Shown here: positions 5,601 through 61,326 of the stretch, piece by piece | Layout: the number at the start of each line of letters is the position of its first letter | Numbering within the stretch: the first letter of the stretch is position 1 | NCBI GenBank assembly: GCA_964514135.1 | Contig: CAZEPL010000003.1 | Location: 6,549 to 70,548, forward strand | DNA: 64,000 nucleotides | From: an uncultured Spirochaetaceae bacterium | GTDB taxonomy: Bacteria > Spirochaetota > Spirochaetia > SZUA-6 > RPPD01 | Direction of reading: 5' to 3' | Notes under the pieces: generated by a model | Seen by the model: the letters and a program-made list of their open reading frames with translations, nothing else | Told to the model about the DNA's origin: nothing | Databases searched by the model: none | Made by a program: the position numbers and the translations under genes

Positions 5601-6341
5601 TTAATCCAACTCAAAACTTACGGACACAGTCTCTTTTATGGAAATCTGGCCCAGTGCAATGGTTGCCATATCCACTGTATCTTGGGTGTTTGTGTTTACC
5701 GCAACATTAGTTAATAAATAACTATCCCGGTGCAGCCAATTTCTTTCGGGCTGCCATTCACTTATAACGTGAGGACGGCCTGCTCTTTGTCCGAGTCCCT
5801 GCGCCATTGTAAGTGCTTTTTGTTGTGCCGCATTTAATGCCAAGGAGCGAGCCTGTTCCCTGAATTCGCTTAATTTTGTGGTGCGGAACTGGATATGATA
5901 GACATAATTGATCCCTGTTTTCAGCAGTTCGCATAATAATTCTTCAAACTGATCGATCTTTGTCAGGGTAATTGAAATTCTTTTATATACATTATATCCC
6001 TCAATATTCCTTGTGCCATGACTGTAGCTGTCGGCATAATCGGGTACCACATTCAAGTAATCCGTCATTATGTGTTTGGGTTCAATATTAAATTGTTTAG
6101 CTACCTGTTTAACCTTTTTTACAATGCTGTCATTTTCCTCTCTGGCTTTTTGTACCGACTTGTGCCATGTGCCTGCTCCCACACAAAAGATAATCTGGTC
6201 GGGCACTACCTTTACCTCGGCTTCTCCTACCACGGAAATGAGCCGCGGCTCGTCTGATTGATTACCTTTGGATGAAACGGTGAAAATAAATCCCAATAAA
6301 ACCATACCTGCGATTATTATCTTGGATGTATTGTCTTTCAT
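5601..6341 (-). CDS. SIMPL/DUF541-like periplasmic protein (BP26/OMP28 family)
   Basis: A signal peptide is followed by ISVVGEAEVKVVPDQIIFCVGAGT, which matches the DUF541 N-terminal pattern. Confidence 0.5.
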   Translation of the reverse strand: MKDNTSKIIIAGMVLLGFIFTVSSKGNQSDEPRLISVVGEAEVKVVPDQIIFCVGAGTWHKSVQKAREENDSIVKKVKQVAKQFNIEPKHIMTDYLNVVPDYADSYSHGTRNIEGYNVYKRISITLTKIDQFEELLCELLKTGINYVYHIQFRTTKLSEFREQARSLALNAAQQKALTMAQGLGQRAGRPHVISEWQPERNWLHRDSYLLTNVAVNTNTQDTVDMATIALGQISIKETVSVSFELD

Positions 6342-6489
6342 ATATACCTCCTAAAGTAGAATGAATTATCTATTTAAGGATTATGATATGAATTGAAACT
6401 AGAGTTGTTATAAAAAGGTAAAAAAATGTAAAAAGGTGTAAATAGCTACATGATTGGATTATTTTACATATTATCTACTCATTTGCTTT

Positions 6490-6760
6490 GTATTGGATAT
6501 TGGCAGATAAATAAAGCTGCCTTCTTCATCATACCCGCCTTCTAATAGTATTCCATGCCAGTGAGGATGAAATCGAGCGAAGTCACCTGCTGTATGATAG
6601 GACAGGATCAAACCAGTTTTGATATTAAGCACAGAATATCATAGCTAAATAGATTCTGTCCGGTGAGATAAAGGAAGGCAATACCGTGGTTATAGAGAGA
6701 GTAAAAGATAATTTCGCCGTGAAAAAGGGGTAGTACATGATTTCACCCTTGGTATATATA
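6490..6760 (-). mobile_element. Degenerate IS91-family (Y2 HUH rolling-circle transposase) gene remnant
   Basis: The minus-strand translation LSYHTAGDFARFHPHWHGILLEGGYDEEGSF matches the IS91 HUH motif region (HTWG..L..HPHxHxLV.GGG). The reading is broken by a frameshift and there is no intact ORF. Confidence 0.45.
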
Positions 6761-8004: not shown

Positions 8005-9042
8005 ATGAATATTAACAACAAAAAATTACTATTAATTTTATTTATTACATCTCTTTTATTATCCACATGCGGTAAACACAGACAAACACATGTTTGCTTT
8101 TTTTACTGGCAGCAGAACTTTACTCTCTCCTCCAAGCAGCTTAAGTACCTTGAAAAATTAAATACAGATAAATTATACCTTAAATTCTTTGATGTGGATT
8201 GGGATGAAACTGTGAAAGATGCGGTCCCGCTTGCCAAGATTCACTTTAAGACGGGAGTACCTGCTGACATTGATATTATACCCTGTGTTTTTATAACCAA
8301 TAGAGCTTTGGAAAAGATAACCTCTCATGACATCCCACTCATGGCTCAGAGGATTGTCACTCTTTTAAAAACACTTCAAAACACATATAACATTAATCAC
8401 TTGAGCAAACTGCAGGTCGACTGCGACTGGACACTAAGCACAAAGCAAAAATATTTCGCTCTTTTAAAGCAGATAAAAAGTCTCGAAGGACAATTAACAC
8501 TCTCGGCCACCATTCGACTGCACCAGGTTAAATATTCCGACACAACCGGAATACCCCCTGTTGATAAAGGAGTGTTGATGTTTTACAACATGGCGGATCT
8601 TGACGACATCCAAACCGATAACTCAATTATCGATCTCAGTGCGGGAAGGGATTACCTAGATGATTTGCCCGATTATCCATTGCAGATCGATATCGCCTTA
8701 CCCGCATTTTCCTGGGCTGTTTTGCTGCGGTTCGATAAAGTGACAAAACTAATCCACAATGTAACACTCGATATGCTTGAAAAAATGACACAGTTTGAAC
8801 AAATAGCAAAAAAGCGCTTTAAGGTAAAGCAAAGTTGTTATTTTAACGGGTATTATCTATACAAAGATGATATATTACGCTATGAGGACGTTGAGATGCC
8901 TGTATTACGAGAGGCGGCCGGAATGCTTGCCTCAAAAATTCGTAATCAGGATCTTAATATCATTTTTTTTCATTTAAACACATACTTAATAGAGGAGTAT
9001 TCGTATGAAGAACTGGAAAGTATTATCAATCGTTTTCATTAG
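8005..9042 (+). CDS. Hypothetical lipoprotein
   Basis: The signal peptide carries a lipobox (LLLSTCGK). The 3' end overlaps the next gene by 38 nt. Confidence 0.5.
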   Translation: MNINNKKLLLILFITSLLLSTCGKHRQTHVCFFYWQQNFTLSSKQLKYLEKLNTDKLYLKFFDVDWDETVKDAVPLAKIHFKTGVPADIDIIPCVFITNRALEKITSHDIPLMAQRIVTLLKTLQNTYNINHLSKLQVDCDWTLSTKQKYFALLKQIKSLEGQLTLSATIRLHQVKYSDTTGIPPVDKGVLMFYNMADLDDIQTDNSIIDLSAGRDYLDDLPDYPLQIDIALPAFSWAVLLRFDKVTKLIHNVTLDMLEKMTQFEQIAKKRFKVKQSCYFNGYYLYKDDILRYEDVEMPVLREAAGMLASKIRNQDLNIIFFHLNTYLIEEYSYEELESIINRFH

Positions 9043-11293
9043 TTATTTACTTATACTGCCTGTTTATAACACATACGCCTGCGGCTGGGTGGATTTCACC
9101 ATGTACTATAACCTCTTTGATCCCACTCTCTTGCTGACAGATGAGTACTCTCCTCTCTTTTATACTACGCCGTTGTATTCCAACCATTGGATACACGGGA
9201 GTTCGGCGCAGGATGATAATGTGGCCGAGTGGGCGCGTTTTTTGCTAATTAACTCACCTGATAACAATATTCACGCCATGATATACGATACCACGCTTGA
9301 AGAGTTGGAAGCAGCCTATAACGGAAACTACAGAGGTAGTAATAAACTGCTTCATTATCTAATAAAAAACAATCGTAAAGAAGTCTTACACTATATACTT
9401 TTCGCAAAGCAATGCGAAAAATACTGCAACATACGTGATTACTGGGATGAAAAACCCAGTGACAACGGGGAAGTTGAACTTATTGAACTGGGGAAAACAG
9501 GAAGTACTGAAAGTAAATCTCGCTTTATCAGGCTGCGTTATGCTTTTCAGACCGTTAAGTTATTGCACCATTATGACAGGCTTAGGGAGTGTATTTTGCT
9601 TTATGACGAGGTTATTGCTCCATCCGGCGAAGACAGTATTATCAAATACTGGGCGCTGGATCACAAAGCCGGTGCACTGCTTAAGCTGAATAAAAGAGCA
9701 GAGGGCTTATATCTTTTCTCCAGGGTGTTCGCCGCATGTCCGAGTAGAAGATACAGCTCATTTTATAGCTTTGATGTGGCCACACAGCAAGAGTGGGAGC
9801 AGTGCCTTGCCTATTGTAAAAATAATGATGAAAAAGCCACCCTCTACTTTTTAAGGGCCATGGACCCCAGCAGCGTGGCACTGGAAGAGATTAAGAGCAT
9901 TTACCGGCTAAATCCGGCAGCGGAATATTTGAATTTATTAACCGTGCGGGAAATAAACAAACTGGAAAATGAGCTTCTAAAAGATGAGCTAAAAGATAAC
10001 TATATTATTATAAGAAAAAGCGGCGGAACTCATAACTATCACAAGCTCCTGAATTACCTTAAAGAACTGAAAGATTTCGTGAACATGGTTATCAAAGAAA
10101 AACCAATACAGCAAAAAGCGTTCTGGCAGATATGTTCTGCGTACCTTGATTTTTTGAGCTATAATCTGAAGACAGCTAGAAGTACACTGAACAGTATTTC
10201 AACCGTGAACAGCAGTTACAGGAGACAGATCAACATCATACACACGGCAATTGCCGCAAGCGGGCTTAACACCATAGATAAGAAAGCTGAAAATGAAATC
10301 ATGACGATGTTATTAAATGCCTACCCTGAAAATATTGCTAATCGTGAAATTACCCGATACGTGCTTGATTCAATGCGTGCTCTCTATACTAAAAAAAAGC
10401 CGTTCACATATTATTACACCGGTATATACGATTTACGCTGTAATCCCGACCAGGCGACCATACAGCAGTTGTTTGATCTGGCAAGCCAAACGCAGCATAC
10501 GCTTTTTGAAAAATTCCTCCTGCTAAGAATGAACGCCTATTTCAGCGGTGAATATGTATTTTCGGCAGAGGTGCTTATGAATAAAACGGATTACATGGAA
10601 CTGAAAAATTCACTGCTTGAGATGAAAGCTATGCTCCTGTTACTTGCTGATGAAATCCAGGAGGCTATTGCCATCTATGCTTCTTTACCCGAAAAAGTGA
10701 GGAGTGAACGCAGATTCATCGATCCGTTTACCACAAGTATACACGATATTATTTGGGATGATTATTATGACGGGAAATTGATATCAAGATTCGAGTTCGC
10801 CAAAAAACTGCTGGAATTAAAAACCAGTATAAAAAAGAATCCCCAAAACGCCCACGCCTATTACCTGCTGGGCAATGCCTATTACAACATAACCTATTTC
10901 GGGAAGTCCTGGGATCTGGTGGGTTATTTCAGAAGCGGGTCTTATTATTCGGGCTTCACCGATTGCTCCAGGGCTTTGAACTATTATAAAAAGGCCTTTG
11001 AGCTTTCCAAAGACAGGGAGCTGAAAGCGGAATGCTGTTTTTTAATGGCAAAGTGCCGACAGAACATGTTCGATCTGGAGTATAATACGGAAGATTATGG
11101 GTATGGATATGGGTCCGATAAATGGAAAAGGTATATACGTGAAAATGAATATTGGAAAGCCGAAGAATTAAAACACGATAAAGGATACAGGGAATATTTT
11201 AAGATATTAAAAGGCGCCTATAGCGATACTGATTATTACAGAAAAGTAATAAAAGGGTGCAAGTATTTTAAGTTTTATGCGTCGCGTTTTTAA
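9005..11293 (+). CDS. Large hypothetical secreted protein with a TPR-like C-terminal region
   Basis: The ORF is 762 aa with an N-terminal signal sequence. Tyr-rich helical repeats near the C-terminus include AHAYYLLGNAYYNITYFG. It overlaps, and is probably co-transcribed with, the upstream lipoprotein gene. Confidence 0.5.
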   Translation: MKNWKVLSIVFISYLLILPVYNTYACGWVDFTMYYNLFDPTLLLTDEYSPLFYTTPLYSNHWIHGSSAQDDNVAEWARFLLINSPDNNIHAMIYDTTLEELEAAYNGNYRGSNKLLHYLIKNNRKEVLHYILFAKQCEKYCNIRDYWDEKPSDNGEVELIELGKTGSTESKSRFIRLRYAFQTVKLLHHYDRLRECILLYDEVIAPSGEDSIIKYWALDHKAGALLKLNKRAEGLYLFSRVFAACPSRRYSSFYSFDVATQQEWEQCLAYCKNNDEKATLYFLRAMDPSSVALEEIKSIYRLNPAAEYLNLLTVREINKLENELLKDELKDNYIIIRKSGGTHNYHKLLNYLKELKDFVNMVIKEKPIQQKAFWQICSAYLDFLSYNLKTARSTLNSISTVNSSYRRQINIIHTAIAASGLNTIDKKAENEIMTMLLNAYPENIANREITRYVLDSMRALYTKKKPFTYYYTGIYDLRCNPDQATIQQLFDLASQTQHTLFEKFLLLRMNAYFSGEYVFSAEVLMNKTDYMELKNSLLEMKAMLLLLADEIQEAIAIYASLPEKVRSERRFIDPFTTSIHDIIWDDYYDGKLISRFEFAKKLLELKTSIKKNPQNAHAYYLLGNAYYNITYFGKSWDLVGYFRSGSYYSGFTDCSRALNYYKKAFELSKDRELKAECCFLMAKCRQNMFDLEYNTEDYGYGYGSDKWKRYIRENEYWKAEELKHDKGYREYFKILKGAYSDTDYYRKVIKGCKYFKFYASRF

Positions 11294-11322
11294 GGATGTG
11301 ATAGCATTAACTTCATTTCAAT

Positions 11323-11781
11323 TTAATACATCATATTGATTACAATATGCTGCTCTAATTCCGAAACCACAATTGAGGCATCTTTAAAGGAGGGGGCACT
11401 CATAAAGCCCATGGCGTCATTGGAAAAACCATATCCTTCGAGTGGTATTCCAAAAAGGCCTTTGTCCATAGAGCCGTTGCTGTTTTCATCATGTAATAAA
11501 CACACGGCATAGGTGCCTGACTGGGCAAGATTAAAAACAGCCTGCGCTTTTCCATTCTTGATGGAGACTGCCGCTTTATCAATGGCTTTTTCGGCGTCTT
11601 CCGGGAAACCCGCTTCGCTGTTATACAGGGCAAGCAATACTTTTCCCTTGTCATTTCGCAGCCCCTTTATGGTTACATGCAGAGTGCTTGCTTCCTGCTC
11701 AGCCCAAAGCGTAACTAAAAAACATATGGTTATCAGTAAAATTATTATTCGTTTCACTATTACTCCTATCAGCGGTTTCAT
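11323..11781 (-). CDS. DUF2141 family protein (copy A)
   Basis: A signal peptide is followed by LHVTIKGLRNDKGKVLLALYNSEAGFPED...GIPLEGYGFSN, which is the DUF2141 signature. Confidence 0.7.
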   Translation of the reverse strand: MKPLIGVIVKRIIILLITICFLVTLWAEQEASTLHVTIKGLRNDKGKVLLALYNSEAGFPEDAEKAIDKAAVSIKNGKAQAVFNLAQSGTYAVCLLHDENSNGSMDKGLFGIPLEGYGFSNDAMGFMSAPSFKDASIVVSELEQHIVINMMY

Positions 11782-12160
11782 TTATTATTAAACACCGCTC
11801 TCTTTCTAAAATGTCACCTGTGCTCTTTTTTTTATTATACTTCATAATTATAACACTAGTTTACTTTGAATTCTTTCTTATCTTTACAGCACAGTATCTG
11901 AATAAGATCTCTGCTGCACTTGGTAACCGCCGGTACTGCTCCGCCGGGCTGCACCCATTGGCCGGTCATATAAAAACCTTTTAGCCCCGGCAGGGTCCTC
12001 TCATACTGCTTGCCGAAGTTTTCCGGTGTAAACAACCAACCCTCAAATGATCCCTGCCGGTTACCTGTATACTTATAGGTGGTCATGGGAGTTGCGATAT
12101 CTACCACTTCAATTTTAGCTTTAATCCCCGGATAACGCGTTTCCAGATAATCCACAATAT
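11323..12160 (-). repeat. Direct repeat copy A (~830 bp; DUF2141 gene plus oxidoreductase 3' fragment)
   Basis: This segment aligns base-for-base with 14789-15540 at roughly 90% identity by eye. Confidence 0.8.
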
Positions 12161-12700
12161 CTCTTTTTATACTCTCTTTTTCCTTATTATACGCAATGCG
12201 GTTTTTTGATAATTTTTACCAAAAAGAAAATGAAGTCGGGAATAACACAGTAACTAAACTCTTGCTACCGGTTTGTAAAGAAGCATAAAAAGCATAGTTC
12301 TTTACCCACAATCCATCAACATTAAAACTGCCGATTTTAATTGACTTAACAAGGAGGTGAATATCCGTATGCGTAACGGCCTTATATTCAGATCTCAGCC
12401 CCAAAGAAATCATCATCAAGGATCACCACAACTTTGCATTTTTGTAACGCTTGTTTATTTTTTTATTTATAAACTTCCCATCCAGCATATTATAAATAGT
12501 TGCATAACCGTCCGCAGCGCTTATTATAAGGTCCGCATGAGCCTGTATTCCGTTCTCCAGCTCAATTCCCACTGCCCGCCTTTTCTTGAGTAATATCTTA
12601 TTTACTTTACAGTTATAGTTAATTTTTGCTCCCATAGCTTTACATTTCGACTCTAATACCCTGGCAAGAAGTCTCGCCCAAGCCTTGCGGCTTGCCCGTT
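11856..12700 (-). pseudogene. Decayed phytoene-desaturase-family (CrtI-like) FAD oxidoreductase
   Basis: Three consecutive minus-strand ORF pieces are frameshifted: 12423-12700 (AMGAKINYNCKVNKILLKKRRAVGIELENG...ADLIISAADG), 12216-12419 and 11856-12155 (C-terminal YTGN...PGGAVP). The N-terminal Rossmann part is missing. Confidence 0.55.
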
Positions 12701-13016
12701 GTGTCACTATAACGGATTCACCCCCTGCTTCCGCCTGAGCGCGCGCGGCGCTACCGCCCCATCCGTACCACTTCTCCGCAGCTCTCAACTTGAGTGCCGG
12801 ACGCTTCTTCCACGTGCAGCGGCTTCTTGAGGAATAGACGCCATACCGCCGCACCACGTGCTTGCCCTTTGGCGGAATATGCAGCGTAAGCTGCGCGATG
12901 AAATCCAAGCCGTAAAAGTACCTGTCCTCGCCCCGAAGAAGTAGCAAATCACTTTTAAAGGATACCGTAAAACTGTCAAGGGCAAAAAATGAGGGTGAAG
13001 CTTTAAGGCAAATCAC
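12700..13016 (-). mobile_element. IS91-family transposase C-terminal remnant fused in-frame to the oxidoreductase fragment
   Basis: HIPPKGKHVVRRYGVYSSRSRC matches the IS91 C-terminal motif (HVLPKGFHRIRHYG). The DNA is locally GC-rich, around 60%, against an AT-rich background. Confidence 0.55.
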
Positions 13017-13063
13017 GAACTATTAACTGTGCGATAAAAGCACTAATTTTATTTTTTAGAAGT

Positions 13064-14698
13064 TTAAAATAATTTTCTATTTAATTTTTCCGCTATGGTT
13101 TTTCCTGTTAAGAATGCATTCGGCATACCTCCGCCGTATACAGTCTGATGACCTATGAAATAAAGACTTTTTATTTTATCATAATAATCAAAATATTTAC
13201 CAGGTAAAGTACCTTTTACAAAAGTTTTTTCTTTGTCCCATGTGAATCCGCAAGACGAACCGTCTGTATTCCCTGTATATTTTTCAATTGTAAATGGAGT
13301 GCCTAATTCGCATACTTCTATCTTTGATCTATTTTTGATTTCCGGAATTAATTTTTCCAGCACATCTAAAACTTGTTTTGTTATCATTTTTTTTATTTTT
13401 TCATACTCTTCGGTTTTATTTCCATTTTTAATTCCCCAGTTGTTATTCCAACCTTTTGGAGGAGAAGGCATTAGGATTAAAATATTGCTTTTATTTTCTG
13501 GAGCATGCCCGGGATTAATAAGGCATGAAGAAAACAATCCTAAACCTATATTTTTAAAATAATTTTTATCATTCAGCCTACTGGAATTTTTTATCATATA
13601 TTGAGAATAATATAAATGCTTGGCACCGTTAAAATATTTTCTAATTTTAATTCTTGAAACATTTAATCCTAAGTATAACGGAATATATGTTTCAGACATT
13701 TCCTGATTTTTTATTTTATCTAAAAATACTTCATCAATATATTCATCTCCTATAAGATTTAAAAAAACTTTTTTTAAATCCATAGCAGTTATTATATTTT
13801 TACCGTACAATTTTTTTATATTTGCTTTCTTAATTAATTCAACTCCAACAGCTTTATCATTTTCAATAATAATTTTTTTAACTTTCACAGAAGTTAATAA
13901 TTCTCCGCCAAAAGATAAATATTTTTCCTTCAATTTATTTGCTAATCCCTGGAATCCATTATATGGGTAATTTTCCATTTCAATTAAGCTTACCCATTCT
14001 GCAATAAAATAAAATAGATCAACGCCCTTATACCCCCAGTTTGAAAAAAAATCATAAGCTTCTCCATTTTCGTCCAGGTATTTTTTTAATACATCGACTG
14101 CTTTATATTTCTTGAGTTCCTTCATGACTTTCATACAGTTTTTCGGCATGATTTTTCCATAATCCATGAATTTCCTTATTTTTTTTAAACCTTTATATGA
14201 AAAAGGATTGGGGATTTTTGAAATCGCTGAATAAACATTTATTCCTTCTTCTATATGCTTATAAAAAGCAAGTATCTGATTTTTTTCTCTAACAAATAAA
14301 TCCGAAATATCTTCAAAGAATTCTTTTACAGTTCGTGGAGAAAAGTTAAAATCCTTAAAACTGAATGAACTCGAGTATTGCTTAAAATTAACTTCAGCAA
14401 TTAAATCCAATTCTTCCATAAAACCCTGGATAAAAGGAACCCCGACACTTATGACTCCGGAATCAAAAAAATAACCTTTCCTGGTGAACCCGCTTGCATG
14501 ACCACCTACTACATTGTGTTGTTCTAATATTATTACTTTTTTCTTTTTTTTAGCTAGAATGATAGCAGCGGTCAGTCCGCTTATCCCTCCGCCAATAATT
14601 AATGCTTCATATGACATATTTATCTCCTTTATAATAATTAAGATAGTTCCAGAATCACTTAGCTGTGTGATTCTTCCAAATAAACAATGCTCAATCAA
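13064..14698 (-). CDS. NAD(P)/FAD-dependent oxidoreductase, phytoene desaturase (CrtI/CrtD)-like family
   Basis: The N-terminal Rossmann motif is IIGGGISGLTAAIIL...ILEQHNVVGGHA. The C-terminus resembles the CrtI family. The DNA is very AT-rich. Confidence 0.75.
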   Translation of the reverse strand: MIEHCLFGRITQLSDSGTILIIIKEINMSYEALIIGGGISGLTAAIILAKKKKKVIILEQHNVVGGHASGFTRKGYFFDSGVISVGVPFIQGFMEELDLIAEVNFKQYSSSFSFKDFNFSPRTVKEFFEDISDLFVREKNQILAFYKHIEEGINVYSAISKIPNPFSYKGLKKIRKFMDYGKIMPKNCMKVMKELKKYKAVDVLKKYLDENGEAYDFFSNWGYKGVDLFYFIAEWVSLIEMENYPYNGFQGLANKLKEKYLSFGGELLTSVKVKKIIIENDKAVGVELIKKANIKKLYGKNIITAMDLKKVFLNLIGDEYIDEVFLDKIKNQEMSETYIPLYLGLNVSRIKIRKYFNGAKHLYYSQYMIKNSSRLNDKNYFKNIGLGLFSSCLINPGHAPENKSNILILMPSPPKGWNNNWGIKNGNKTEEYEKIKKMITKQVLDVLEKLIPEIKNRSKIEVCELGTPFTIEKYTGNTDGSSCGFTWDKEKTFVKGTLPGKYFDYYDKIKSLYFIGHQTVYGGGMPNAFLTGKTIAEKLNRKLF

Positions 14699-14788
14699 TA
14701 TTTTAACATTTTTATATAATGCATTATATGCTCAACACCTTTTTTATATACACCCGCATCTTAAGAGAGCGTGTTTAAAAATATTTTT

Positions 14789-15247
14789 TCAATATACTAT
14801 ATTAATTGTGATATAATAATCTGATCCTATAACCTCTATCGAGGCATCTTTAAAGGGGGGGGCGCTCATAAATCCTTTGGCATCATTAGAGAACCCATAC
14901 CCTTCCAGTGGAATACCAAAAAGGCCTTTATCCATGGAGCCGTTATTGTTTTCATCGTGTACTAAACACACCGCATAGGTACTGGAATGGTCAAGATTAA
15001 AAACAGCCTGCGCTTTGCCATTCTTGATGGACACTACCGCCGTATCAACGGCTTTTTCGGCGTCTTCCGGGAAACCCGCTTCACTGTTATACAGGGCAAG
15101 CAGTACTTTTCCCTTATCATTTCGCAGCCCCTCTATGGCTACATGTAGAGTGCATTCTTGTTTCTCAGCCCAAAGCGAGACTAAAAAACATATGGTTATC
15201 AGTAAAATTATTATTCGTTTCATTATTACTCCTTTTTGCGGTTTCAT
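14789..15247 (-). CDS. DUF2141 family protein (copy B, paralog)
   Basis: It is about 85% identical to copy A at protein level by eye. A C8/G8 homopolymer lies in the codons for APPF. Confidence 0.7.
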   Translation of the reverse strand: MKPQKGVIMKRIIILLITICFLVSLWAEKQECTLHVAIEGLRNDKGKVLLALYNSEAGFPEDAEKAVDTAVVSIKNGKAQAVFNLDHSSTYAVCLVHDENNNGSMDKGLFGIPLEGYGFSNDAKGFMSAPPFKDASIEVIGSDYYITINIVY

Positions 15248-15360
15248 TTATAAATAAAGCACCGCCTTATTTTCTAAAATGTCACCCGTTTTAATTTTTT
15301 TTATTATCCCTCATAATCATAATACTATTTTATTCTGAATTCTTTTTTATCTTTATGGCA

Positions 15361-15540
15361 CAGTAATTGAATAAGATCTCTGCTGCACTTGGCAACCGCC
15401 GGCACACCTCCCCCCGGCTGCACCCACTGTCCGGTCATATAAAAATCTTTTAGTCCCGGCAATCTTTTTTCATACTGCTTACCAAAGTTTTCCGGTGTAA
15501 ACAGCCAGCCCTCAAACGATCCCTGCCGGTTCTTTTATTA
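15361..15540 (-). pseudogene. CrtI-like oxidoreductase C-terminal remnant (second copy)
   Basis: The DNA is near-identical to 11880-12060 and encodes the ...PGGVPAVA...ILFNYCAIK-like C-terminal end. It is truncated upstream. Confidence 0.5.
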
Positions 15541-15544
15541 ATAA

Positions 15545-17344
15545 TTAATCTATTATACATATATCTGGTATTTTTTTTTCAATAAAGAATTTATAATTCG
15601 ATTGCGGATAGCCTAAGGCAAGAGCACCATGCACTTTATATTTTTTTTGAATCTGTAATAATTTTCGTAGCTTCTGTGATCTCTGGATTGCCGTTACAAT
15701 ATAGCCAGCATAACAAGTTCCAATACCCAGTGAGTGGGCAGCAAGCATGGCATTGGAAAGAGCAAGTTGCGCGTTTATTTCCGGAAGTCGAAGAGTTGGC
15801 CCGGAATAAAAAAGCAACAAACATCTGGCATTGTGCAGGAATGGATCACTGTGGTTGTTAAAATTAGATATAATAATTTCTAGTTCTTTTATAATCTTAC
15901 GCATCTCATTACCATATAAAAATACTGCAAAAAATTTATTTATTGGATTTTTTAATCCGGTATATAATTTTTTATAGTATGAAAAGATATTTTCTTTAAT
16001 GGCATTTAATACTTCGGGTTTTTGTATAACTATGTATTTTGTACTCTGTATATTATGTGCGCTGGGAGCAAGTTGAGCAGCACTGATTATATTATTAATA
16101 TCATTCTCTGAAAGGCTTTCTCCATTAAAACTACGAATAGATCGTCTGCTTTTTAAGAACTCAATAAAAATCTTGTATGAAAATAATACATTATTATGAA
16201 TAGGATGCATTTTCTTTTCTTTAAAAAAACTGTGGCTGATAGCATTTTTTGAGCAGAGAATCACGCAATGTCCACAGGAAATACATAGGTCTGTGTTTTT
16301 TAAAGAGGGTACTATACTATCATTATGTTTTTGAAAAACAGAAGCAGGACAATTGTTAAGGCAATTCATACAGGAATTACAGAGGTTTAGATTAATGGTA
16401 ATGGATAGATCATTCCTTGACTTTTTATACTTCGACTTCAGGGCCTGTAAGGAGGTATACTTTGGTTTAAAACCAAAATCTCTTTTTAATTTCTCATTGG
16501 AAGCAGTCCATCGATATTGCCAGTAGGAAAAGGATGAAACCGGAGTCTTGAATAAATTTAGCTTATAGAACAAATCACAGATTTTCATTAAAAAAGGAGT
16601 GAGTTTACTCCATTTGACTCTTCCTCCCGCAACTTGAGCCGCTTCACTTAAGTTTATCACATCATCAGGAACAAGGTTAAAAACACCTTTTATCTTATTC
16701 TTTTTTACGGCTGTATAATAGCACTCTATCATATCCTCTTCATGAAGAAACTGGTAAGCAGGATCAAATCCCTCAAACAGATAAACATTTTTCTTTTCTA
16801 AAACCCTTGAATAGTCCATGTCTACTTCCGGTCCATATAACTCACACATTCTAAAGATAATATAATCCATCTCAGGGTGAGATCTGAAAAAGGAAAGACA
16901 CAATTTCTCTACCTCAACTTTATCATGATAATAATAGTACTCTGGATTGCCCCTGTAAGGAGAGCTTTCCTTTAGAAAAAGTGGGTTATCAGGATTTGCC
17001 CCATACACAACAGTGCTGCTTGGAATAATTATCTTTTTAATTCCTGTATGTGACGAGGCATTTAAAATATTCTTTGTTCCTTCCACATTGATACTATAAG
17101 CCAATTTTTTATTCTTAAACGGCGGCATTAAAAAAGCCAGGTGAATAATTGTTTCAATATTCTCTTCTTTCAAAATTTCTTTAATCTTAAGGTTTCTAAC
17201 ATCAAATTGATAGAATTGATGGCCTAAAGGAAGAAGGACCTTTTTCATATCTATCCCTGTTATCTTTATATCAGGATCCTGTAATAATCGTGATAATAGC
17301 TTTTGGCCCATATACCCTGAAATACCCGTAATGGCCACATTCAT
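15545..17344 (-). CDS. Three-domain fusion: NAD-dependent epimerase/dehydratase-like + 2x[4Fe-4S] ferredoxin + nitroreductase
   Basis: The N-terminal Rossmann motif is VAITGISGYMGQ. The middle region has CNSCMNCLNNCP...CISCGHCVILC. The C-terminal nitroreductase-like region is RRSIRSF...APSAHNIQ. An AGGAGG RBS is present. Confidence 0.65.
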   Translation of the reverse strand: MNVAITGISGYMGQKLLSRLLQDPDIKITGIDMKKVLLPLGHQFYQFDVRNLKIKEILKEENIETIIHLAFLMPPFKNKKLAYSINVEGTKNILNASSHTGIKKIIIPSSTVVYGANPDNPLFLKESSPYRGNPEYYYYHDKVEVEKLCLSFFRSHPEMDYIIFRMCELYGPEVDMDYSRVLEKKNVYLFEGFDPAYQFLHEEDMIECYYTAVKKNKIKGVFNLVPDDVINLSEAAQVAGGRVKWSKLTPFLMKICDLFYKLNLFKTPVSSFSYWQYRWTASNEKLKRDFGFKPKYTSLQALKSKYKKSRNDLSITINLNLCNSCMNCLNNCPASVFQKHNDSIVPSLKNTDLCISCGHCVILCSKNAISHSFFKEKKMHPIHNNVLFSYKIFIEFLKSRRSIRSFNGESLSENDINNIISAAQLAPSAHNIQSTKYIVIQKPEVLNAIKENIFSYYKKLYTGLKNPINKFFAVFLYGNEMRKIIKELEIIISNFNNHSDPFLHNARCLLLFYSGPTLRLPEINAQLALSNAMLAAHSLGIGTCYAGYIVTAIQRSQKLRKLLQIQKKYKVHGALALGYPQSNYKFFIEKKIPDICIID

Positions 17345-17463
17345 ATAGATTCCTCCTTTTTGTGGAATAAAAACTGTTCTACATAACAGTTCTTTTGCGC
17401 ATAATAGGCGGCGGTTAATCCCGCAATACCTGCTCCGATTATGATAATCTTCTTTTCTTTCAC
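17341..17463 (-). pseudogene. Mini-ORF encoding only an FAD-binding Rossmann N-terminus (VKEKKIIIIGAGIAGLTAAYYA...), with its stop overlapping the start of the 599-aa gene (ATGA)
   Basis: I translated the minus strand by hand. A GTG start is followed by 38 codons. The GxGxxG fold N-terminus has no remaining body. This is either a gene remnant or a leader ORF. Confidence 0.4.
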
Positions 17464-17695
17464 AGCAGCCCCTCTCCTTATCAATAGTTTTGCTTTTTCA
17501 GCCGCATGCACTCTTTACACTTATCACATTATTACCCGGCGCATTTTGGCGGAATAGATTATTCATATTGAAATATAGTGTTAAAACTGCGCAATGTCGT
17601 CTTAAATATTATTTGAGACTTATTTTTTTGTTTATAAAAAAAAGATTTTAATTATTAATCATTATCCGGCTGCTGCTCTCTGGGGCTTAGTCGTT

Positions 17696-18775
17696 TTAAG
17701 AACTCTGCCGGCGGAATTCTTTGGGAACCATACCGGTTTTTTCTTTAAACACCCTGTTAAAAGTGGCTTTGGAATTAAAACCGGCAGCAAAAGCCAGTTC
17801 CAATATTGATTTTTTATTGTTTGCGAGATTTTGCAGCAATTTTTTTACCTCATTTAAGCGGTAGGTGTTTAAGAATTCGTTAAAGTTAATTTCTTCATGC
17901 TTACGAATGATCTGCGATAATCTTACCGGAGGGATAATACGAGTCAAAGCTGAGAGATCACCCAAGGTAAGTTCTATATCTATATATGCTTTTTGTTGTT
18001 CCATCACGGATTTGAGCCTTTTATATTCTTGATCCGTATCTTCATCGGTTAAAAACTGTTTAACCGGATATTTCTTATCGTAATCGATTTCATCAACAAA
18101 AATGACAGGATGTAATAATGAAAAGTAACCCAACAAATATATTACAAAGGCTACATTTAAGGCTATCATAGCATGCATGAGTTCTTTGAATGCAGCTGAG
18201 TCCACCAAGCTGTAAGCAAATATTATTAAGAGAACAGAAGCTATCCATGATAAAATCGATATAATAATAAGAGAAAAAATCCATATTTTACGCTCAAGTG
18301 TTATCATCCAATTATAAAATCCGTATCGCTTTTTAAAAAGGATAATGATGTTTGCCAGAGAAAATACTGAGGCCCAAACAAATGATGTTAATGCATAGTT
18401 ATAATACTGTGTAAATAGAGCGGCATCTGTTGTTAAGTATATTATAAAGGCAAAGAAAGAAATGGCGGCCGGGGAGAGATAAAATAAATATATTTTTTTA
18501 AATTCAAAATTGATATCGGTTAAAGACTTAATATAAAAATACGAGAGCGGTCCCAGCAAAAACAAATCAAACTCAATGGAAAAAAAGAAACAAATGTGTG
18601 TTGGAATAATTCCTGCTAAATAAAGGTATGTGTTGAGCAGCAAATAGACAAGTGCATAAATCCATAAGCTTAAAAATAAATTTGATTGGCTTTTTTTTCT
18701 TTTATTAAAGACGGCAATTCCAAGGAAAGTTCCATGTAAAGCTCCCAGCAGAATTAATATTCTTAAAATAAACAT
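17696..18775 (-). CDS. AraC-family transcriptional regulator with a multi-pass membrane N-terminal domain
   Basis: About six hydrophobic helices at the N-terminus are followed by a C-terminal AraC helix-turn-helix (LAFAAGFNSKATFNRVFKEKTGMVPKEFRR). Confidence 0.75.
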   Translation of the reverse strand: MFILRILILLGALHGTFLGIAVFNKRKKSQSNLFLSLWIYALVYLLLNTYLYLAGIIPTHICFFFSIEFDLFLLGPLSYFYIKSLTDINFEFKKIYLFYLSPAAISFFAFIIYLTTDAALFTQYYNYALTSFVWASVFSLANIIILFKKRYGFYNWMITLERKIWIFSLIIISILSWIASVLLIIFAYSLVDSAAFKELMHAMIALNVAFVIYLLGYFSLLHPVIFVDEIDYDKKYPVKQFLTDEDTDQEYKRLKSVMEQQKAYIDIELTLGDLSALTRIIPPVRLSQIIRKHEEINFNEFLNTYRLNEVKKLLQNLANNKKSILELAFAAGFNSKATFNRVFKEKTGMVPKEFRRQSS

Positions 18776-35964: not shown

Positions 35965-36028
35965 GAATGATTACAGTGATCAACCGTGTATAGTGTATTT
36001 CGGTGAACTATCCCAAGATATATTAAGT

Positions 36029-36150
36029 GAGGAAATTGCAAAACTCAAAATATATTAACTTAGTAAAATACTTATTCTCTATACCATAATAAGTTAGCAA
36101 TTTCCATTTTAGGAGCTTCTTGCAAAAATAACATTTTTGCAAGAAGCTCA
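36029..36150 (+). repeat. MITE-like element copy A: 9-bp TIRs (GGAAATTGC...GCAATTTCC) plus an adjacent 16-bp stem hairpin
   Basis: It aligns with 39764-39840 and with the reverse complement of 61095-61214. Confidence 0.75.
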
Positions 36151-39624: not shown

Positions 39625-39763
39625 TTTTTTGGTAGCACATTAAGATTTTTCTTGATCTTTCTTATTCATGTATTGACTAGGATTTTAAGTCTATCTATCA
39701 TTTTAAATATAATGGAGGTGTTATAATGAAAAACCCTGAAAAAAAATGTATTCTTATTTTAGC

Positions 39764-39840
39764 GAGGAAATTGCAAAACTCAAAATATATTAAGTTAGTA
39801 AAATACTTATTCTTTATACCATAATAATTTAGCAATTTCC
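39764..39840 (+). repeat. MITE-like element copy B (core with both TIRs, no hairpin)
   Basis: It aligns with the 36029-36105 core. Confidence 0.7.
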
Positions 39841-47706: not shown

Positions 47707-49164
47707 TTACCGGACTAAACCGATAATCAGTTCCGTTTTTTCTCTGAGAATCCTAAAACGAATATCCTGATTTTTTTCCTGACTTAAATAGCGATAAAAA
47801 TCACGCGTATTCTCGATTTTCTTCTCATTTATTCTGGTTATCACATCACCCTGCTTAAGACCCACAGTAAAAGCGGCGCTTCCGTTAGCTACATGTAAGA
47901 TAACCACACCGCTGGTTTCCGTTTTTAGCTTCAACTCACTGCTGGTCTCCGGGGTAATAGGAAGTACAGAAAATCCCGGCCAGATTTTATCAGCCTGATT
48001 TGCTATTGTTTTTTCATCACCTCGCGACCCGAGTTTCACATTTATGTCCATTTCTTTACCGTCACGAATGAGGTTTAAAAGGGTGGCGGCGCCCGGTGAC
48101 AGGTTGCCTATTATGTGTAAAAGATGAGATGAATCTCTCAGCTCTTTACCGTTCACCGCCGTTATAAAATCGCCTGGGAGAACTCCTGCCTTAAAAGCCG
48201 GTGAATTTTTAAACAAACCATATACAAGAGCGCCACTTTTACCCTCTATTTTCAAATCCACGGCTAGCTCCGGAGGAATCCCTCCCATGGTAATACCCAG
48301 CCAGCCGTATTCCACTTTTCCTTTGGTAAGAAAATCTTCGATGTCTTTTTTTGCATTATTAATGGGAATGGCAAAGCCCAAACCGACACTGCCGCCGGTA
48401 GGTGATGCGATCCAGGTATTAATTCCTATCACTTTCCCTTCTATATTTACTAGTGCGCCACCCGAATTACCCTGGTTGATGGCCGCATCAGTCTGTATGT
48501 ATTCGGTAAAATTACCTCTTCCTGCTTCAAGAGCACTTTCACGGCCGACGGCGCTAATAATGCCTGAGGTAATGCTCGAAGAAAAACCGAATGGATTGCC
48601 GACAGCCAATACCCAGTCGCCCACCTGAATATCATCCGAATCACCCAGTTCTGCAATGGGTGTCTGTTCCTGGGTTTCGAAAACCAGGAAAGCCAGGTCC
48701 TTTTTATCGTCCACGCCAACCAATGAAGCATTAAACTCACGCTTGTCGGAGAGGGTAATATTTATTTCTTCGGCTTCTCCGGCCACATGGTAATTGGTAA
48801 GTACATACACCTTATTACCGATTCTCTTCACTATAATACCGGAGCCCAAACCATACTGCCTGTACTCCCTCTGCTCAGGTTTACTGTTGTTATCCGGATT
48901 ATCAAAAAAGAAATCAAATGGTGATGTAAAAGCAGGAGCTTTCACCACATCTGCTATTTTCACTTCCACTACCACAGGTATCACCTTCCCGGCCACAAGA
49001 TGAAAGGCATTCTGAATATTCTCTAATGTGGCAATACCCTGATTAATCTGCTCCGCTTTATCGTCACTATCAGCTCCTATAAAAAGAGTGGAAAATAATA
49101 AAAGTATTGCAAAAACTATTACCGTGCCGAGCGGTTTTTTTATAAATCTTATTTTATTTTTCAT
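47707..49164 (-). CDS. htrA: HtrA/DegP-family serine protease (trypsin domain + 2 PDZ)
   Basis: Motifs are HVAGEAEEI, DKKDLAFL and GNSGGALVN. Confidence 0.9.
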   Translation of the reverse strand: MKNKIRFIKKPLGTVIVFAILLLFSTLFIGADSDDKAEQINQGIATLENIQNAFHLVAGKVIPVVVEVKIADVVKAPAFTSPFDFFFDNPDNNSKPEQREYRQYGLGSGIIVKRIGNKVYVLTNYHVAGEAEEINITLSDKREFNASLVGVDDKKDLAFLVFETQEQTPIAELGDSDDIQVGDWVLAVGNPFGFSSSITSGIISAVGRESALEAGRGNFTEYIQTDAAINQGNSGGALVNIEGKVIGINTWIASPTGGSVGLGFAIPINNAKKDIEDFLTKGKVEYGWLGITMGGIPPELAVDLKIEGKSGALVYGLFKNSPAFKAGVLPGDFITAVNGKELRDSSHLLHIIGNLSPGAATLLNLIRDGKEMDINVKLGSRGDEKTIANQADKIWPGFSVLPITPETSSELKLKTETSGVVILHVANGSAAFTVGLKQGDVITRINEKKIENTRDFYRYLSQEKNQDIRFRILREKTELIIGLVR

Positions 49165-49181: not shown

Positions 49182-50759
49182 CTAGTTAACCAGTCCCAGC
49201 AACAACTCTTTGTTGTCGCGGCTGAGTTTAAATATTATTTCAGACTGCCCGGATTCATTTATTGCTTTATAGAAATCCGTCACGTTATAAATTGGTCTAT
49301 TGTTTATTGAGCGTATGATATCGCCTGACTGAAAACCGGCTACTCCTGCAGCGCTGTGCTGCTCAACTCTACTGATAATCACATTACCGATGGTGTTTGC
49401 CAGATTAAGACGAGTACGAATATCATCCGTGATACTTATGGCAACCAATCCCGGCCAGAGCAGGGCGGCCTGGTCTGCTTCCTGCTCTGAGGCAGGTCTT
49501 TCCTTTACGTGCAATGTAAGATTCATCTTTTTCGCATAACGGATTAACTCCACCACTGCCTGCTCGCCAGGCTTTAGACTGCCTGCAGTAAGCAGCAGCT
49601 GCATCATATCGCTTATCTCTTCTCCATTAACACGGGTTATATAATCGCCGGGAAGTATCCCCGCTTTATAAGCGGGTGAATTCTTATACACACCGTACAC
49701 AAATGAACCCTTTGTATCAGCCAGATTGAGATCTTTCTGCAATGCAGCCGGAAGATCGCCGCTCTCTACCCCTATCCAGCCGTAGGACACTTTACCTTTG
49801 GTAATAAACTCCTCAATCGCGGTTTTCGCGTTATTTGTGGGAATGGCAAATCCTATACCCACATTTCCGCCGGAGGGTGATGCGATCCAGGTGTTTATGC
49901 CTATAACCTCACCACGAATGTTTACCAGTGCACCGCCGGAGTTTCCCTGATTGATAGCAGCGTCTGTCTGAAAATAATCGGTATATACCGCAATCTCGGA
50001 ATGAGGTAACGACCTCCTTCCTATGGCGCTAATAATGCCCTGTGTTACTGTGGAATCAAATCCCAGCGGATTCCCCACTGCAAGCACCCAGTCACCGACC
50101 TGAACAGAACTTGAGTCTCCGAGTACGGCTACGGGAATGTGTGCTTTAGCTTCAAACATCACCAAAGCCAGGTCTTTTTTATCATCTTTGCCCACCAGCG
50201 CGGCTTTGTACTCTTTATTATCTGCGAATTTAACGGTTATCTCATCAGCATCACGCACCACATGATTGTTGGTGAGTACATATACATTTCCGTCCACCTG
50301 ACGCACAACAATACCGGAACCTAATCCCTGGCGCCGAAATTCTCTTTGCTGGGGCGCGGAGTTATTTTCATCGGGACCAAAAAAGAATTCAAAAGGTGAA
50401 AAATCAGACGGCGCATCCTGTTTTACTACATCGACAACCGCAATCTCCACAACAGCGGGAAGAACCTTGCCTGAAATATCCTGCAGGGCCGTTTGAATGT
50501 TCGACATTGAAGCAAATCCCTCGTTAGCATTATGCGGAAGCTCCAGATTAAAGGAGCTCCCTGTTATAAATCCGTCCGGATGTGTCGAAATAATATAAGG
50601 GGACACTAACATCCCTGAGATAAAGAAGATGAGCGCTGCAACGGGCAGCTGAACAAATCTATGTTTAATTATTTGCTTTATGGTCATAACAACCTCCTCG
50701 TTTATAATGTTACGCTTTAAACATAACGGAGCAAGCTTACGGTAATATGACCGCAACAT
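49182..50759 (-). CDS. htrA: HtrA/DegP-family serine protease (tandem paralog)
   Basis: Motifs are HVVRDADEI and GNSGGALVNIRGEVIGINT. Confidence 0.9.
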   Translation of the reverse strand: MLRSYYRKLAPLCLKRNIINEEVVMTIKQIIKHRFVQLPVAALIFFISGMLVSPYIISTHPDGFITGSSFNLELPHNANEGFASMSNIQTALQDISGKVLPAVVEIAVVDVVKQDAPSDFSPFEFFFGPDENNSAPQQREFRRQGLGSGIVVRQVDGNVYVLTNNHVVRDADEITVKFADNKEYKAALVGKDDKKDLALVMFEAKAHIPVAVLGDSSSVQVGDWVLAVGNPLGFDSTVTQGIISAIGRRSLPHSEIAVYTDYFQTDAAINQGNSGGALVNIRGEVIGINTWIASPSGGNVGIGFAIPTNNAKTAIEEFITKGKVSYGWIGVESGDLPAALQKDLNLADTKGSFVYGVYKNSPAYKAGILPGDYITRVNGEEISDMMQLLLTAGSLKPGEQAVVELIRYAKKMNLTLHVKERPASEQEADQAALLWPGLVAISITDDIRTRLNLANTIGNVIISRVEQHSAAGVAGFQSGDIIRSINNRPIYNVTDFYKAINESGQSEIIFKLSRDNKELLLGLVN

Positions 50760-54974: not shown

Positions 54975-55200
54975 GTAAAAATCTTTAGCTCAATATATAG
55001 CAAGGTGTCCCATATCTCAGGAGAAAATTGGATATGAACCCTTTCATGGAAAGGATTTTGGAGCACTCCCCACATGCTGTTAGGTTAGCATCTTCCGGAT
55101 GGGAAAATAAGCTAAAAGCAACCTGTGCTCGATTAATCAAGAAGGTCTATGGCACTGATCATTTGGTTTGACCAAGCTGTGGCTCTGAATTGAAGAATAA
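54975..55200 (+). mobile_element. IS91-family remnant fragment, sharing ~90 bp with 59130-59215
   Basis: The direct repeat is ATCTTTAGCTCAATATATAGCAA...ATGAACCCTTTCATGGAAAGGATTTT. Copy 2 is contiguous with a HUH transposase fragment. Confidence 0.35.
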
Positions 55201-58899: not shown

Positions 58900-59250
58900 T
58901 TTTATAGAATTTTTAACGATGTTTTTCGCATGAAAATAGTTACAGGTCTTGTACTCTCCTATCAGACAGCAGGAGATTTCGCCAGGTGGAATCCACATTA
59001 TCATTGACTTCTTCTAGAAGGTAGTTTTGATGCGGAAGGCAATTTTGAAGAACTGATAAATGAGAATTTTGCTAATAAATTACTATCCTGGAAGAATTCA
59101 GGATTTTCAATTGATAACTCTGTAAGAATCTTTAGCTCAATATATAGCAATGCGTCCCATATCTCTGGAGAAGATTAGATATGAACCCTTTCATGGAAAG
59201 GATTTTAGAGCACTCACCTTTGGGAACTATGCGCAATTAACTCTAAGGAG
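58900..59250 (+). mobile_element. IS91-family transposase remnant (HUH region) with an in-frame stop
   Basis: The sequence LSYQTAGDFARWNPHYH*LLLEGSFDAEGNF matches the IS91 HUH block. It is followed by the ~90-bp segment shared with 54975-55065. Confidence 0.5.
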
Positions 59251-61094: not shown

Positions 61095-61214
61095 ATATTA
61101 AATGAGTTTCTTGCAAAAATAACATTTTTGCAAGAAACTCCTAAAATGGAAATTGCTAAATTATTATGGTATAAAGAATTAGTATTTTACTAACTTAATA
61201 TATTTTGAGTTTTG
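61095..61214 (-). repeat. MITE-like element copy C (inverted orientation; core plus hairpin)
   Basis: Its reverse complement matches 36029-36150 at about 90% by eye. Confidence 0.75.
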
Positions 61215-61326
61215 CAATTTCCTCAAATAATAAGAATTTACCATTTACTCCCGGGCTGCTCATGATTTGGCCGAATCCGCCACAATCCATTTTATCGCAA
61301 ATATAAAAATATTCCGGTCTTTTTCT

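Follow-up and report, generated by a model that had tools for sequence, protein, structure and literature searches.

A probable recombination scar in an oxidoreductase-DUF2141 operon of an uncultured spirochaete

Genes and repeat copies at the locus

A 64,000-nucleotide stretch of DNA from an uncultured Spirochaetaceae bacterium (GenBank assembly GCA_964514135.1, contig CAZEPL010000003.1, positions 6,549 to 70,548; hereafter the window) contains two similar segments, copy A and copy B, each of which comprises a complete gene for a DUF2141 protein and the 3' end of a gene for a CrtI-like oxidoreductase, here called ox. All coordinates refer to the window. The DUF2141, ox, oxC (a second oxidoreductase gene) and AraC features and a gene for a fusion protein of 599 amino acids (aa) are located on the minus strand, and a TPR gene is convergent with them. 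The locus is composed of the following features, listed as read along the minus strand:

17696-18775, minus strand: AraC-family regulator, 359 aa, syntenic left flank (Pfam HTH_18 and HTH_AraC; synteny in the related loci L006, L007, L008 and L174, described below)
17571-17619, minus strand: promoter/operator-like region downstream of the AraC gene, with the palindrome GTCTCAAATAATATTTAAGAC (17599-17619) and the -10-like ACACTATATTT (17571-17581)
17383-17463, minus strand: ox 5' remnant, GTG start, codons 1-27 with the GxGxxG motif (nucleotide identity 92.6% to the start of ox in L174 and 79% to that in L006; Rossmann-type Pfam matches)
15545-17344, minus strand: 599-aa fusion of an epimerase/dehydratase of the short-chain dehydrogenase/reductase (SDR) type, a 2x[4Fe-4S] ferredoxin and a nitroreductase (PF01370, Fer4 families, PF00881)
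14788-15531, minus strand: repeat copy B, made up of DUF2141-B, the intergenic segment and ox 3' remnant B (self-blastn)
15328-15531, minus strand: ox 3' remnant B, codons 428-495 and stop (ungapped tblastn, 80% to the ox of L006 and 85% to that of L174)
14789-15247, minus strand: DUF2141-B, 152 aa, intact (PF09912, 117.9 bits)
13064-14617, minus strand: oxC, intact 517-aa flavin adenine dinucleotide (FAD) oxidoreductase of the CrtI/CrtISO superfamily (Pfam Amino_oxidase and NAD_binding_8)
12669-13016, minus strand: fragment of an IS91-family (Y2) transposase, 55% guanine plus cytosine (GC), fused in frame to oxA (PF04986, Y2_Tnp, 28.3 bits)
11856-12668, minus strand: oxA, ox codons 226-495 and stop, a 5'-truncated pseudogene in a single frame (ungapped tblastn)
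11322-12062, minus strand: repeat copy A, made up of DUF2141-A, a 74-bp intergenic segment and the last 68 ox codons (self-blastn; repeat families D1 and D2)
11323-11781, minus strand: DUF2141-A, 152 aa, intact (PF09912, 125.7 bits)
9005-11293, plus strand: TPR-containing protein, 762 aa, convergent, syntenic right flank (Pfam scan; same neighbour in L008, L174 and L003)

The closest named relative is a metagenome-assembled genome (MAG) labelled Spirochaetales bacterium (GCA_016930675.1). The ox orthologues (71-83%) were found through the contexts of DUF2141 genes, and had been missed by a homologue search with the oxA translation. The related loci, designated by L numbers, are organized as follows:

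L174 (87-100% nucleotide identity to the window): AraC gene, intact 495-aa ox, DUF2141 gene, TPR gene
L006 and L007 (GCA_016930675.1): AraC gene, intact 502-aa ox, DUF2141 gene
L008: AraC gene, 597-aa fusion gene, DUF2141 gene, TPR gene
L010: gene of the 599-aa type immediately ahead of the DUF2141 gene

When the window was compared with itself by blastn, an extended match was found between 11322-12062 and 14788-15531 (84.8% identity over 744 columns, 110 mismatches, 3 gaps, E = 0), a similarity far above chance, and this direct repeat of ~0.74 kb is the longest within the window. A reading made beforehand from the letters of the window (hereafter the sequence-only reading) had placed the repeat at 11323-12160 and 14789-15540 with an identity of ~90%; the repeat itself was recovered, at the lower identity given above, and the homology of copy A ends at 12062. 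As that reading also stated, each copy carries an intact DUF2141 gene and the 3' end of a CrtI-like oxidoreductase gene, and copy B stops abruptly. The 3' end belongs to ox in both copies and amounts to 68 codons and the stop, and the homology of copy B breaks off at 15531, 13 nt past the stop codon of the 599-aa gene. Identity between the copies amounts to 85.2% in the DUF2141 open reading frame (ORF), 79.2% in the intergenic segment and 86.0% in the ox 3' end. It is even along the repeat (82-92%) and the longest identical run is 43 nt only, so that nothing points to gene conversion between copies A and B in recent times, a candidate explanation that was rejected on these grounds.

Both DUF2141 proteins pass the PF09912 cut-off of 24.4 bits and match positions 1-110 (A) and 1-106 (B) of the 112 profile positions. 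DUF2141-B shares 80% aa and ~85% nucleotide identity (85.3%) with DUF2141-A, with a ratio of non-synonymous to synonymous substitution rates (dN/dS) of 0.25. In an alignment of 20 sequences, all 16 family-invariant residues (HDEN motif, G-x-P-x-EGYGFSN) are kept in A and B, while the nearly invariant G89 is a serine in DUF2141-B. DUF2141-A is preceded by TGTTATAAT, an extended -10-like motif, which is degraded to TATTATGAT ahead of DUF2141-B, and is separated by 29 bp from the convergent TPR gene, an arrangement also found in L174 and L008. The AlphaFold2 model of DUF2141-A (mean predicted local distance difference test score, pLDDT, 85) consists of an N-terminal hydrophobic helix (export signal or anchor) followed by a beta-sandwich. 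Structure matches of this model in the PDB were generic only (Ole e 1-like, CnaB and CBM20 folds; template modelling score, TM, ~0.4) and gave no functional lead, and a PDB sequence search with DUF2141 returned nothing meaningful and no sequence relative with a solved structure. The alleles of this gene in L174 and L003 show no difference from DUF2141-A (100% identity). Indeed, a 620-bp tract over this gene (11301-11920) is 100% identical in the window, L003 and L174, with flanks that differ by 10-15%, which points to a very recent homologous transfer, or a sweep, of this allele.

The interrupted oxidoreductase gene and the DNA within it

The part of ox that adjoins DUF2141-A (oxA, 12668-11859) aligns without gaps by tblastn to intact orthologues, with aa identities of 71% to L006 and 82.6% to L174, and contains two in-frame nonsense codons: a TGA at 12423-12425 (codon 307) and a TAA at 12216-12218 (codon 376). 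The body that follows copy A had been described in the sequence-only reading as multiply frameshifted; this description has to be abandoned, since the gap-free alignment to two intact orthologues rules out a frameshifted pseudogene and leaves a 5' truncation and two nonsense codons as the damage. Recoding of the stops was likewise rejected, as one is a TGA and the other a TAA, the neighbouring genes use the standard code and the first 225 codons are gone. A strain variant from another sample (L002) lacks 111 bp inside oxA (12022-12132), a deletion which suggests that decay is ongoing. Remnant B has no start codon and is preceded by in-frame stop codons just upstream; ox codons 226-427, present beside copy A, are lacking in copy B.

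The 5' end of ox is located next to the AraC gene. This remnant carries the FAD-binding GxGxxG Rossmann motif in the form IIGAGIAG, with NAD_binding_8 matches in Pfam, and weaker similarity to ox extends to ~17356 (perhaps ~codon 36). A short ORF (17463-17341) begins there with the flavoenzyme N-terminus VKEKKIIIIGAGIAGL and overlaps at its end the ATG of the 599-aa gene. The decisive comparison is that with L174, which matches the window from 19204 to 17382 and then from 12646 to 9474, and whose positions 6133-6747 have no counterpart in the window. Because the match to L174 stops at ox codon 27 and resumes at 12646, the 5' stub beside the AraC gene and oxA beside DUF2141-A are read as the two halves of one resident ox gene. 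In the window, ox codons ~28/37-225 (~600 bp) are lost and a block of 4.7 kb (17382-12669) lies in their place; no orthologous ox would thus be functional in the window. For annotation, this means that the 56-aa, 67-aa and 99-aa ORFs are fragments of one dead ox gene, and that the 197-aa "gene" at 12423-13016, inside which the IS91 fragment lies, is a transposase-oxidoreductase chimera.

The block comprises, in minus-strand order, the 599-aa gene, ox 3' remnant B, DUF2141-B, oxC and the IS91-type transposase fragment. The 599-aa gene sits where ox codons ~28/37-427 would be. Orthologues at the same locus are encoded in L008 (597 aa, 74% identical) and L010 (62% identical), in which seemingly only the last ~20-25 nt of ox are left before the conserved DUF2141 upstream region, and in which the 599-type gene appears as an alternative occupant of the ox slot. 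The 25 nt ahead of the start codon of the 599-aa gene in the window correspond to the promoter-proximal leader of L008, and its last six codons differ from those of L008 and L010; from these two traits, the gene looks as though it had been excised from an allele of the L008 type and inserted into ox.

The next intact gene, oxC, is preceded by an AAGGAG 7 nt before its ATG at 14617 and encodes an FAD oxidoreductase with a GxGxxG motif in the form IIGGGISG, which is only 25-28% identical to ox by tblastn. Its nearest database relative is 61% identical and occurs in an unrelated context. The sequence-only reading had noted a much more AT-rich intact oxidoreductase gene between the copies, and the per-gene composition bears this out: oxC has a GC content of 29.2% and a third-position GC content (GC3) of 23%, against a GC content of 41.1 +/- 3.5% in 23 background ORFs. 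The adjoining transposase fragment has a GC content of 55%, so that oxC and the IS91 fragment are compositional outliers in opposite directions. This fragment scores 28.3 bits against the Y2_Tnp profile (PF04986, cut-off 20.9) and matches only positions 149-179 of the 183 in the profile; a remnant of ~115 codons is fused to oxA and a complete transposase gene is lacking. The self-comparison yielded no further copy of the fragment in the window, and a comparison with plasmids yielded no match. The junction between the fragment and oxA lies in the motif CTTGCCAGG, which resembles the CTGGCCAAG of ox codon 226. The IS91 fragment, the ox 5' remnant and the truncation of copy B by the 599-aa gene are additions to the sequence-only reading, whose proposal of a mosaic built by recombination or insertion is borne out by the AT-rich oxC and the GC-rich transposase remnant between the copies and by the undisturbed single-copy locus of L174.

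Upstream of these genes, the palindrome and the -10-like region are invariant in the window, L174, L006 and L008, whether ox or a 599-type gene comes next, and a consensus scan places ACGACA-17-TATATT in the region 17571-17619, which is a candidate operator/promoter by virtue of this conservation. The promoter and terminator scan gave no excess over shuffled expectation, and an Rfam scan of the window detected no RNA family. In L006 (6276-7184) and L007 (1576-2484), a VIT1-family gene is encoded between a PAS/HisKA sensor kinase gene and the AraC gene; it is lacking at the corresponding position in the window and in L174.

Origin of the second copy

Substitution patterns suggest that the damage to ox is recent. 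Indeed, the dN/dS of oxA against L174 is 0.149, and that of intact L174 against intact L006 is 0.139. With L006 as outgroup, 18 synonymous and 8 non-synonymous codon changes and 1 stop are assigned to the oxA branch, against 17 synonymous and 7 non-synonymous changes on the L174 branch. Remnant B has a dN/dS of ~0.12 against A, L174 and L006, and its differences from A number 6, 6 and 17 at the three codon positions. Since these signatures of purifying selection (dN/dS 0.12-0.15) still stand in both remnants, the trend is that both pieces spent nearly all of their divergence time inside working genes and that the truncations and nonsense mutations came late.

The distance between the copies is ordinary for this population, in which alleles of different lineages usually diverge by ~15%. 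The identity of oxA to L174 is ~85%; in the ox 3' end, L003 shares 85-88% with A and 80-85% with B, and A shares 90.5% with L174 and 86.1% with B. Inside the AraC gene (18409-18608), identity to L174 falls abruptly from 99% to 71% at ~18508, which marks a recombination breakpoint. The comparison of the window with L174 yields a patchwork in which tracts of 97-100% identity stand beside tracts of 71-89%. From this patchwork, the break in the AraC gene and the shared 620-bp tract over DUF2141-A, homologous exchange between lineages is clearly frequent at the locus.

We propose, with a rough probability of 0.6, that the repeat arose as a side effect of a recent insertion-deletion which broke one resident operon, and not a duplicated functional module. 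The ancestral locus would have had the order AraC gene, conserved promoter/operator, ox, exported DUF2141 and convergent TPR gene. Copy B most likely belongs to the inserted block, the 4.7 kb of which would have been imported from a lineage ~15% diverged, out of a donor allele in which a 599-type gene was already nested in ox and in which oxC and an IS91 element lay downstream of the donor DUF2141 gene. On the AraC/promoter side, the block would have been joined by homology; at the far end, the join would have been illegitimate and of the microhomology type, linking the transposase fragment (CTTGCCAGG) to ox codon 226 (CTGGCCAAG), and the IS91-type element may have assisted the joining of the block. 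At present, the 599-aa gene and DUF2141-B would stand behind the old promoter, DUF2141-A would remain intact and oxC could be a stand-in flavoenzyme for ox; the functional genes of the locus are likely limited to the 599-aa gene, oxC and the two DUF2141 copies. We infer that such an import is the most economical history; a duplication in place requires more events.

Two known processes offer parallels. Homology-facilitated illegitimate recombination, known from natural transformation of Acinetobacter and Streptococcus, consists in the insertion of foreign DNA, which is anchored by homology on one flank, together with a deletion. The present locus resembles it in having one homologous side (AraC gene, promoter and ox 5' end, with the break at ~18508), a non-homologous junction on the other side at the short microhomology described above, and a loss of ~600 bp of resident ox against a gain of 4.7 kb. 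It differs in that part of the inserted DNA has homology to the resident locus, hence the repeat, and the likeness concerns the end product, from which the mechanism is deduced. The second parallel is with the IS91/ISCR rolling-circle elements, which co-mobilise the DNA that adjoins their transposase gene. Here, a Y2-transposase fragment lies exactly at the junction and the foreign, passenger-like oxC is encoded directly upstream on the same strand; however, only ~115 transposase residues are left, 31 positions of the Pfam profile are matched and no plasmid match was found.

Several observations weigh against the import. The collections searched yielded no allele of the supposed donor type, with a 599-type gene inside ox and with DUF2141-B and oxC after it. 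As oxC and the IS91 fragment are 26 GC points apart, they cannot share one source, which is unlike a simple IS91/ISCR passenger and requires a history of several steps for the block. No ends of an IS91 element were identified, in the course of work that included no specific search for such ends. The timing derives from small counts (8-27 changed codons per lineage) and is a trend, not a proof. Among the sampled DUF2141 genes, none is nearer to A or to B than the other copy once the identical alleles of L174 and L003 are set aside, which also fits a duplication in place. Finally, oxA is itself ~15% distant from L174, so that identity alone cannot name the resident copy; the comparison with syntenic loci that had been suggested for this purpose gave a single ox-DUF2141 unit in L174, L006 and L007.

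The strongest competitor, which we nevertheless consider rather unlikely, is an old head-to-tail duplication in situ of the whole ox-DUF2141 unit, both copies of which would have been functional for a long time (synonymous divergence, dS, ~0.4-0.6) before being broken recently by separate events: the 599-aa gene would have replaced ox codons ~28-427 of the upstream unit, oxC and an IS91 element would have replaced codons 1-225 of the downstream unit, and the two nonsense mutations would have followed. In agreement with such a duplication, the two copies form a direct repeat with a spacing of 3.47 kb and significant extended similarity, they group together against the more distant L006/L010 and L008/L009 clades (85% nucleotide identity between A and B, against 71-78% of each to the sampled DUF2141 genes of these clades), and both ox 3' ends and both DUF2141 genes bear the purifying selection expected if both units worked. 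Yet the copies do not abut head to tail: oxC, the IS91 fragment and ox codons 226-427, together 2.7 kb of unrelated sequence, lie between them, and an intact tandem was found in none of the relatives examined. The ox 3' end of A is nearer to L174 than to B (90.5% against 86.1%), which would place the duplication before the split between A and L174, and as L174 has a single unit, the loss of one copy in that lineage would be needed. Three or more independent recent events within the same few kilobases would be required as well, whereas the outermost ox pieces (codons 1-27/36 and 226-495) fit together as one gene without any second copy. The segmental duplication proposed in the sequence-only reading thus holds as far as the repeat is concerned, but a plain duplication is not the most economical explanation, since the ox pieces that flank the block are halves of one resident gene.

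It is less probable still, and in our view improbable, that the arrangement was selected as two modules, with the 599-aa fusion served by DUF2141-B and oxC by DUF2141-A, the duplication being adaptive. Both DUF2141 genes are intact, with a dN/dS of 0.25 and the 16 invariant residues kept; each lies downstream of an intact redox gene; the arrangement persists with few single-nucleotide polymorphisms across several samples; and in relatives DUF2141 follows either ox or a 599-type gene. However, the divergence between A and B probably arose in separate genomes, so that dN/dS says little about selection since they were joined. Moreover, oxC and DUF2141-A are held apart by 1.28 kb of decayed sequence, the -10-like motif ahead of DUF2141-B is degraded and the 111-bp deletion variant points to continuing decay.

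The structure itself was checked on independent contigs, obtained by exact-protein look-up: it recurs, at 99.5-100% identity, in assemblies made independently from five or more samples (including JGI 3300031278, 3300031337, 3300031351, 3300031369 and 3300031586), with L175 covering 18288-12737, L005 covering 16542-12195, L001 covering 14434-11318, and L176, L177, L004 and L002 covering further parts. An assembly artefact, in which a metagenome assembler would have wrongly joined in tandem the versions of a single ox-DUF2141 locus from two strains, is accordingly very improbable: the assembly is of the metagenome type with MAG and metagenome contigs as its closest matches, the difference of ~15% between A and B also equals the distance between strains and no single independent contig spans both copies completely, but contigs from other samples reproduce every junction, L002 and L004 extend from copy A into the TPR flank, the sequences that flank A and B are unique to each, and a 2.2-kb overlap of unique sequence between L005 and L001 physically links the two copies.

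Other repeats are present elsewhere in the window. An element of 83-129 nt, with terminal inverted repeats GGAAATTGC...GCAATTTCC, occurs in copies 92-97% identical at 36022-36150, at 39758-39840 and, on the minus strand, at 61103-61231, as well as at 1152-1280 of L174. As the site of the L174 copy is empty in the window, the element looks mobile, and it resembles a miniature inverted-repeat transposable element (MITE) or a repetitive extragenic palindrome (REP). A direct repeat of 97 nt (54975-55071 and 59122-59218) is 92% identical over a distance of 4.1 kb. Furthermore, two adjacent ORFs on the same strand (47707-49164, 485 aa; 49182-50759, 525 aa) share a 213-nt stretch at 75% identity and are probably tandem paralogues.

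The oxidoreductase-DUF2141 pairing and its meaning

The presence of the same gene pair in both copies had been taken in the sequence-only reading as a hint of a functional unit. This hint is weak, because the pairing in both copies follows from their descent from one ancestral ox-DUF2141 operon, and because a different redox gene precedes DUF2141 in L008 and L010. Two surveys of 80 loci each were drawn from a genome scan with the DUF2141 profile and from a metagenome scan with the L006 ox (matches listed at no more than 50% identity, with no donor of the block among them). Among the matches listed, a CrtI-like gene is encoded within 4 kb at 3 of the 80 DUF2141 loci, from diverse genomes, and a DUF2141 gene is present in the flanks of 1 of the 80 ox-family loci. 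Upstream neighbours of DUF2141 on the same strand are heterogeneous in 69 genomes, including TraB/PrgY/gumN (7), UbiD (6-7), AMP-binding (3), SQS_PSY (2) and MlaC (2) proteins, and a Pfam scan of these 69 neighbours placed no amine-oxidase family within the top 25 upstream neighbour families. A general linkage of ox and DUF2141 was rejected on these results, and the pairing appears to be specific to this clade. In a more distant locus (L011, 5586-8435), a DUF2141 gene with 50% identity follows a gene for a 573-aa Flavodoxin_2/FMN_red/SCP2 fusion and a PEMT-family methyltransferase gene, under a MarR regulator, and is another DUF2141 downstream of a redox enzyme.

Regarding the enzymes, ox and oxC share with CrtI, CrtISO and CrtD (TIGR02734, TIGR02730 and TIGR02733) full-length similarity, an N-terminal GxGxxG FAD fold and matches to Amino_oxidase and NAD_binding_8. 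However, they score far below the curated cut-offs (90-113 bits against 238-587) and are relatives of these desaturases and isomerases rather than identified members: the ox of L006 and oxC reach 100.5 and 89.9 bits for CrtI (TIGR02734, cut-off 238.1), and 113.2 and 104 bits for carotenoid isomerase (TIGR02730, cut-off 586.9). No other crt gene was seen among the neighbours at the locus (AraC, DUF2141, TPR and 599-aa genes), a look that did not extend to the rest of the window. In the literature on DUF2141, the only co-location described is with crtG, which a DUF2141 gene adjoins among the carotenoid genes of Sphingomonadales and Qipengyuania (PMC5989583, PMC9241875). Here too, DUF2141 is encoded beside a member of a carotenoid-type enzyme family, but the partner there is the 2,2'-beta-hydroxylase CrtG and here it is a CrtI-like flavoenzyme below every curated carotenoid cut-off.

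A more speculative idea, for which the odds are low, is that in this spirochaete clade unrelated redox enzymes are swapped by recombination at the position that follows the AraC-linked promoter/operator, in front of an exported DUF2141 protein that stays the same. The enzymes concerned would be the CrtI-like flavoenzyme, the fusion of SDR, ferredoxin and nitroreductase and, in the window, an additional CrtI-like enzyme of xenologous origin. If so, DUF2141 would act as a general partner outside the cytoplasm, which might for instance bind or carry a lipophilic or quinone-like molecule that is used or formed in the redox reaction, and the window would be a hybrid caught in the middle of an exchange and would provide a first functional handle on DUF2141. 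The wider interest lies in the fact that the enzyme gene in front of DUF2141 is exchanged while neither the position of DUF2141 nor the regulatory region upstream changes, an observation that establishes no function for DUF2141.

In summary, the analysis of this locus points to ordinary genome mosaicism, with a recombination scar in a broken operon, and not to a new system. As such, it may serve as a clean and datable case of how recombination between lineages that are ~15% diverged can create partial duplications and kill genes in an uncultured spirochaete population.

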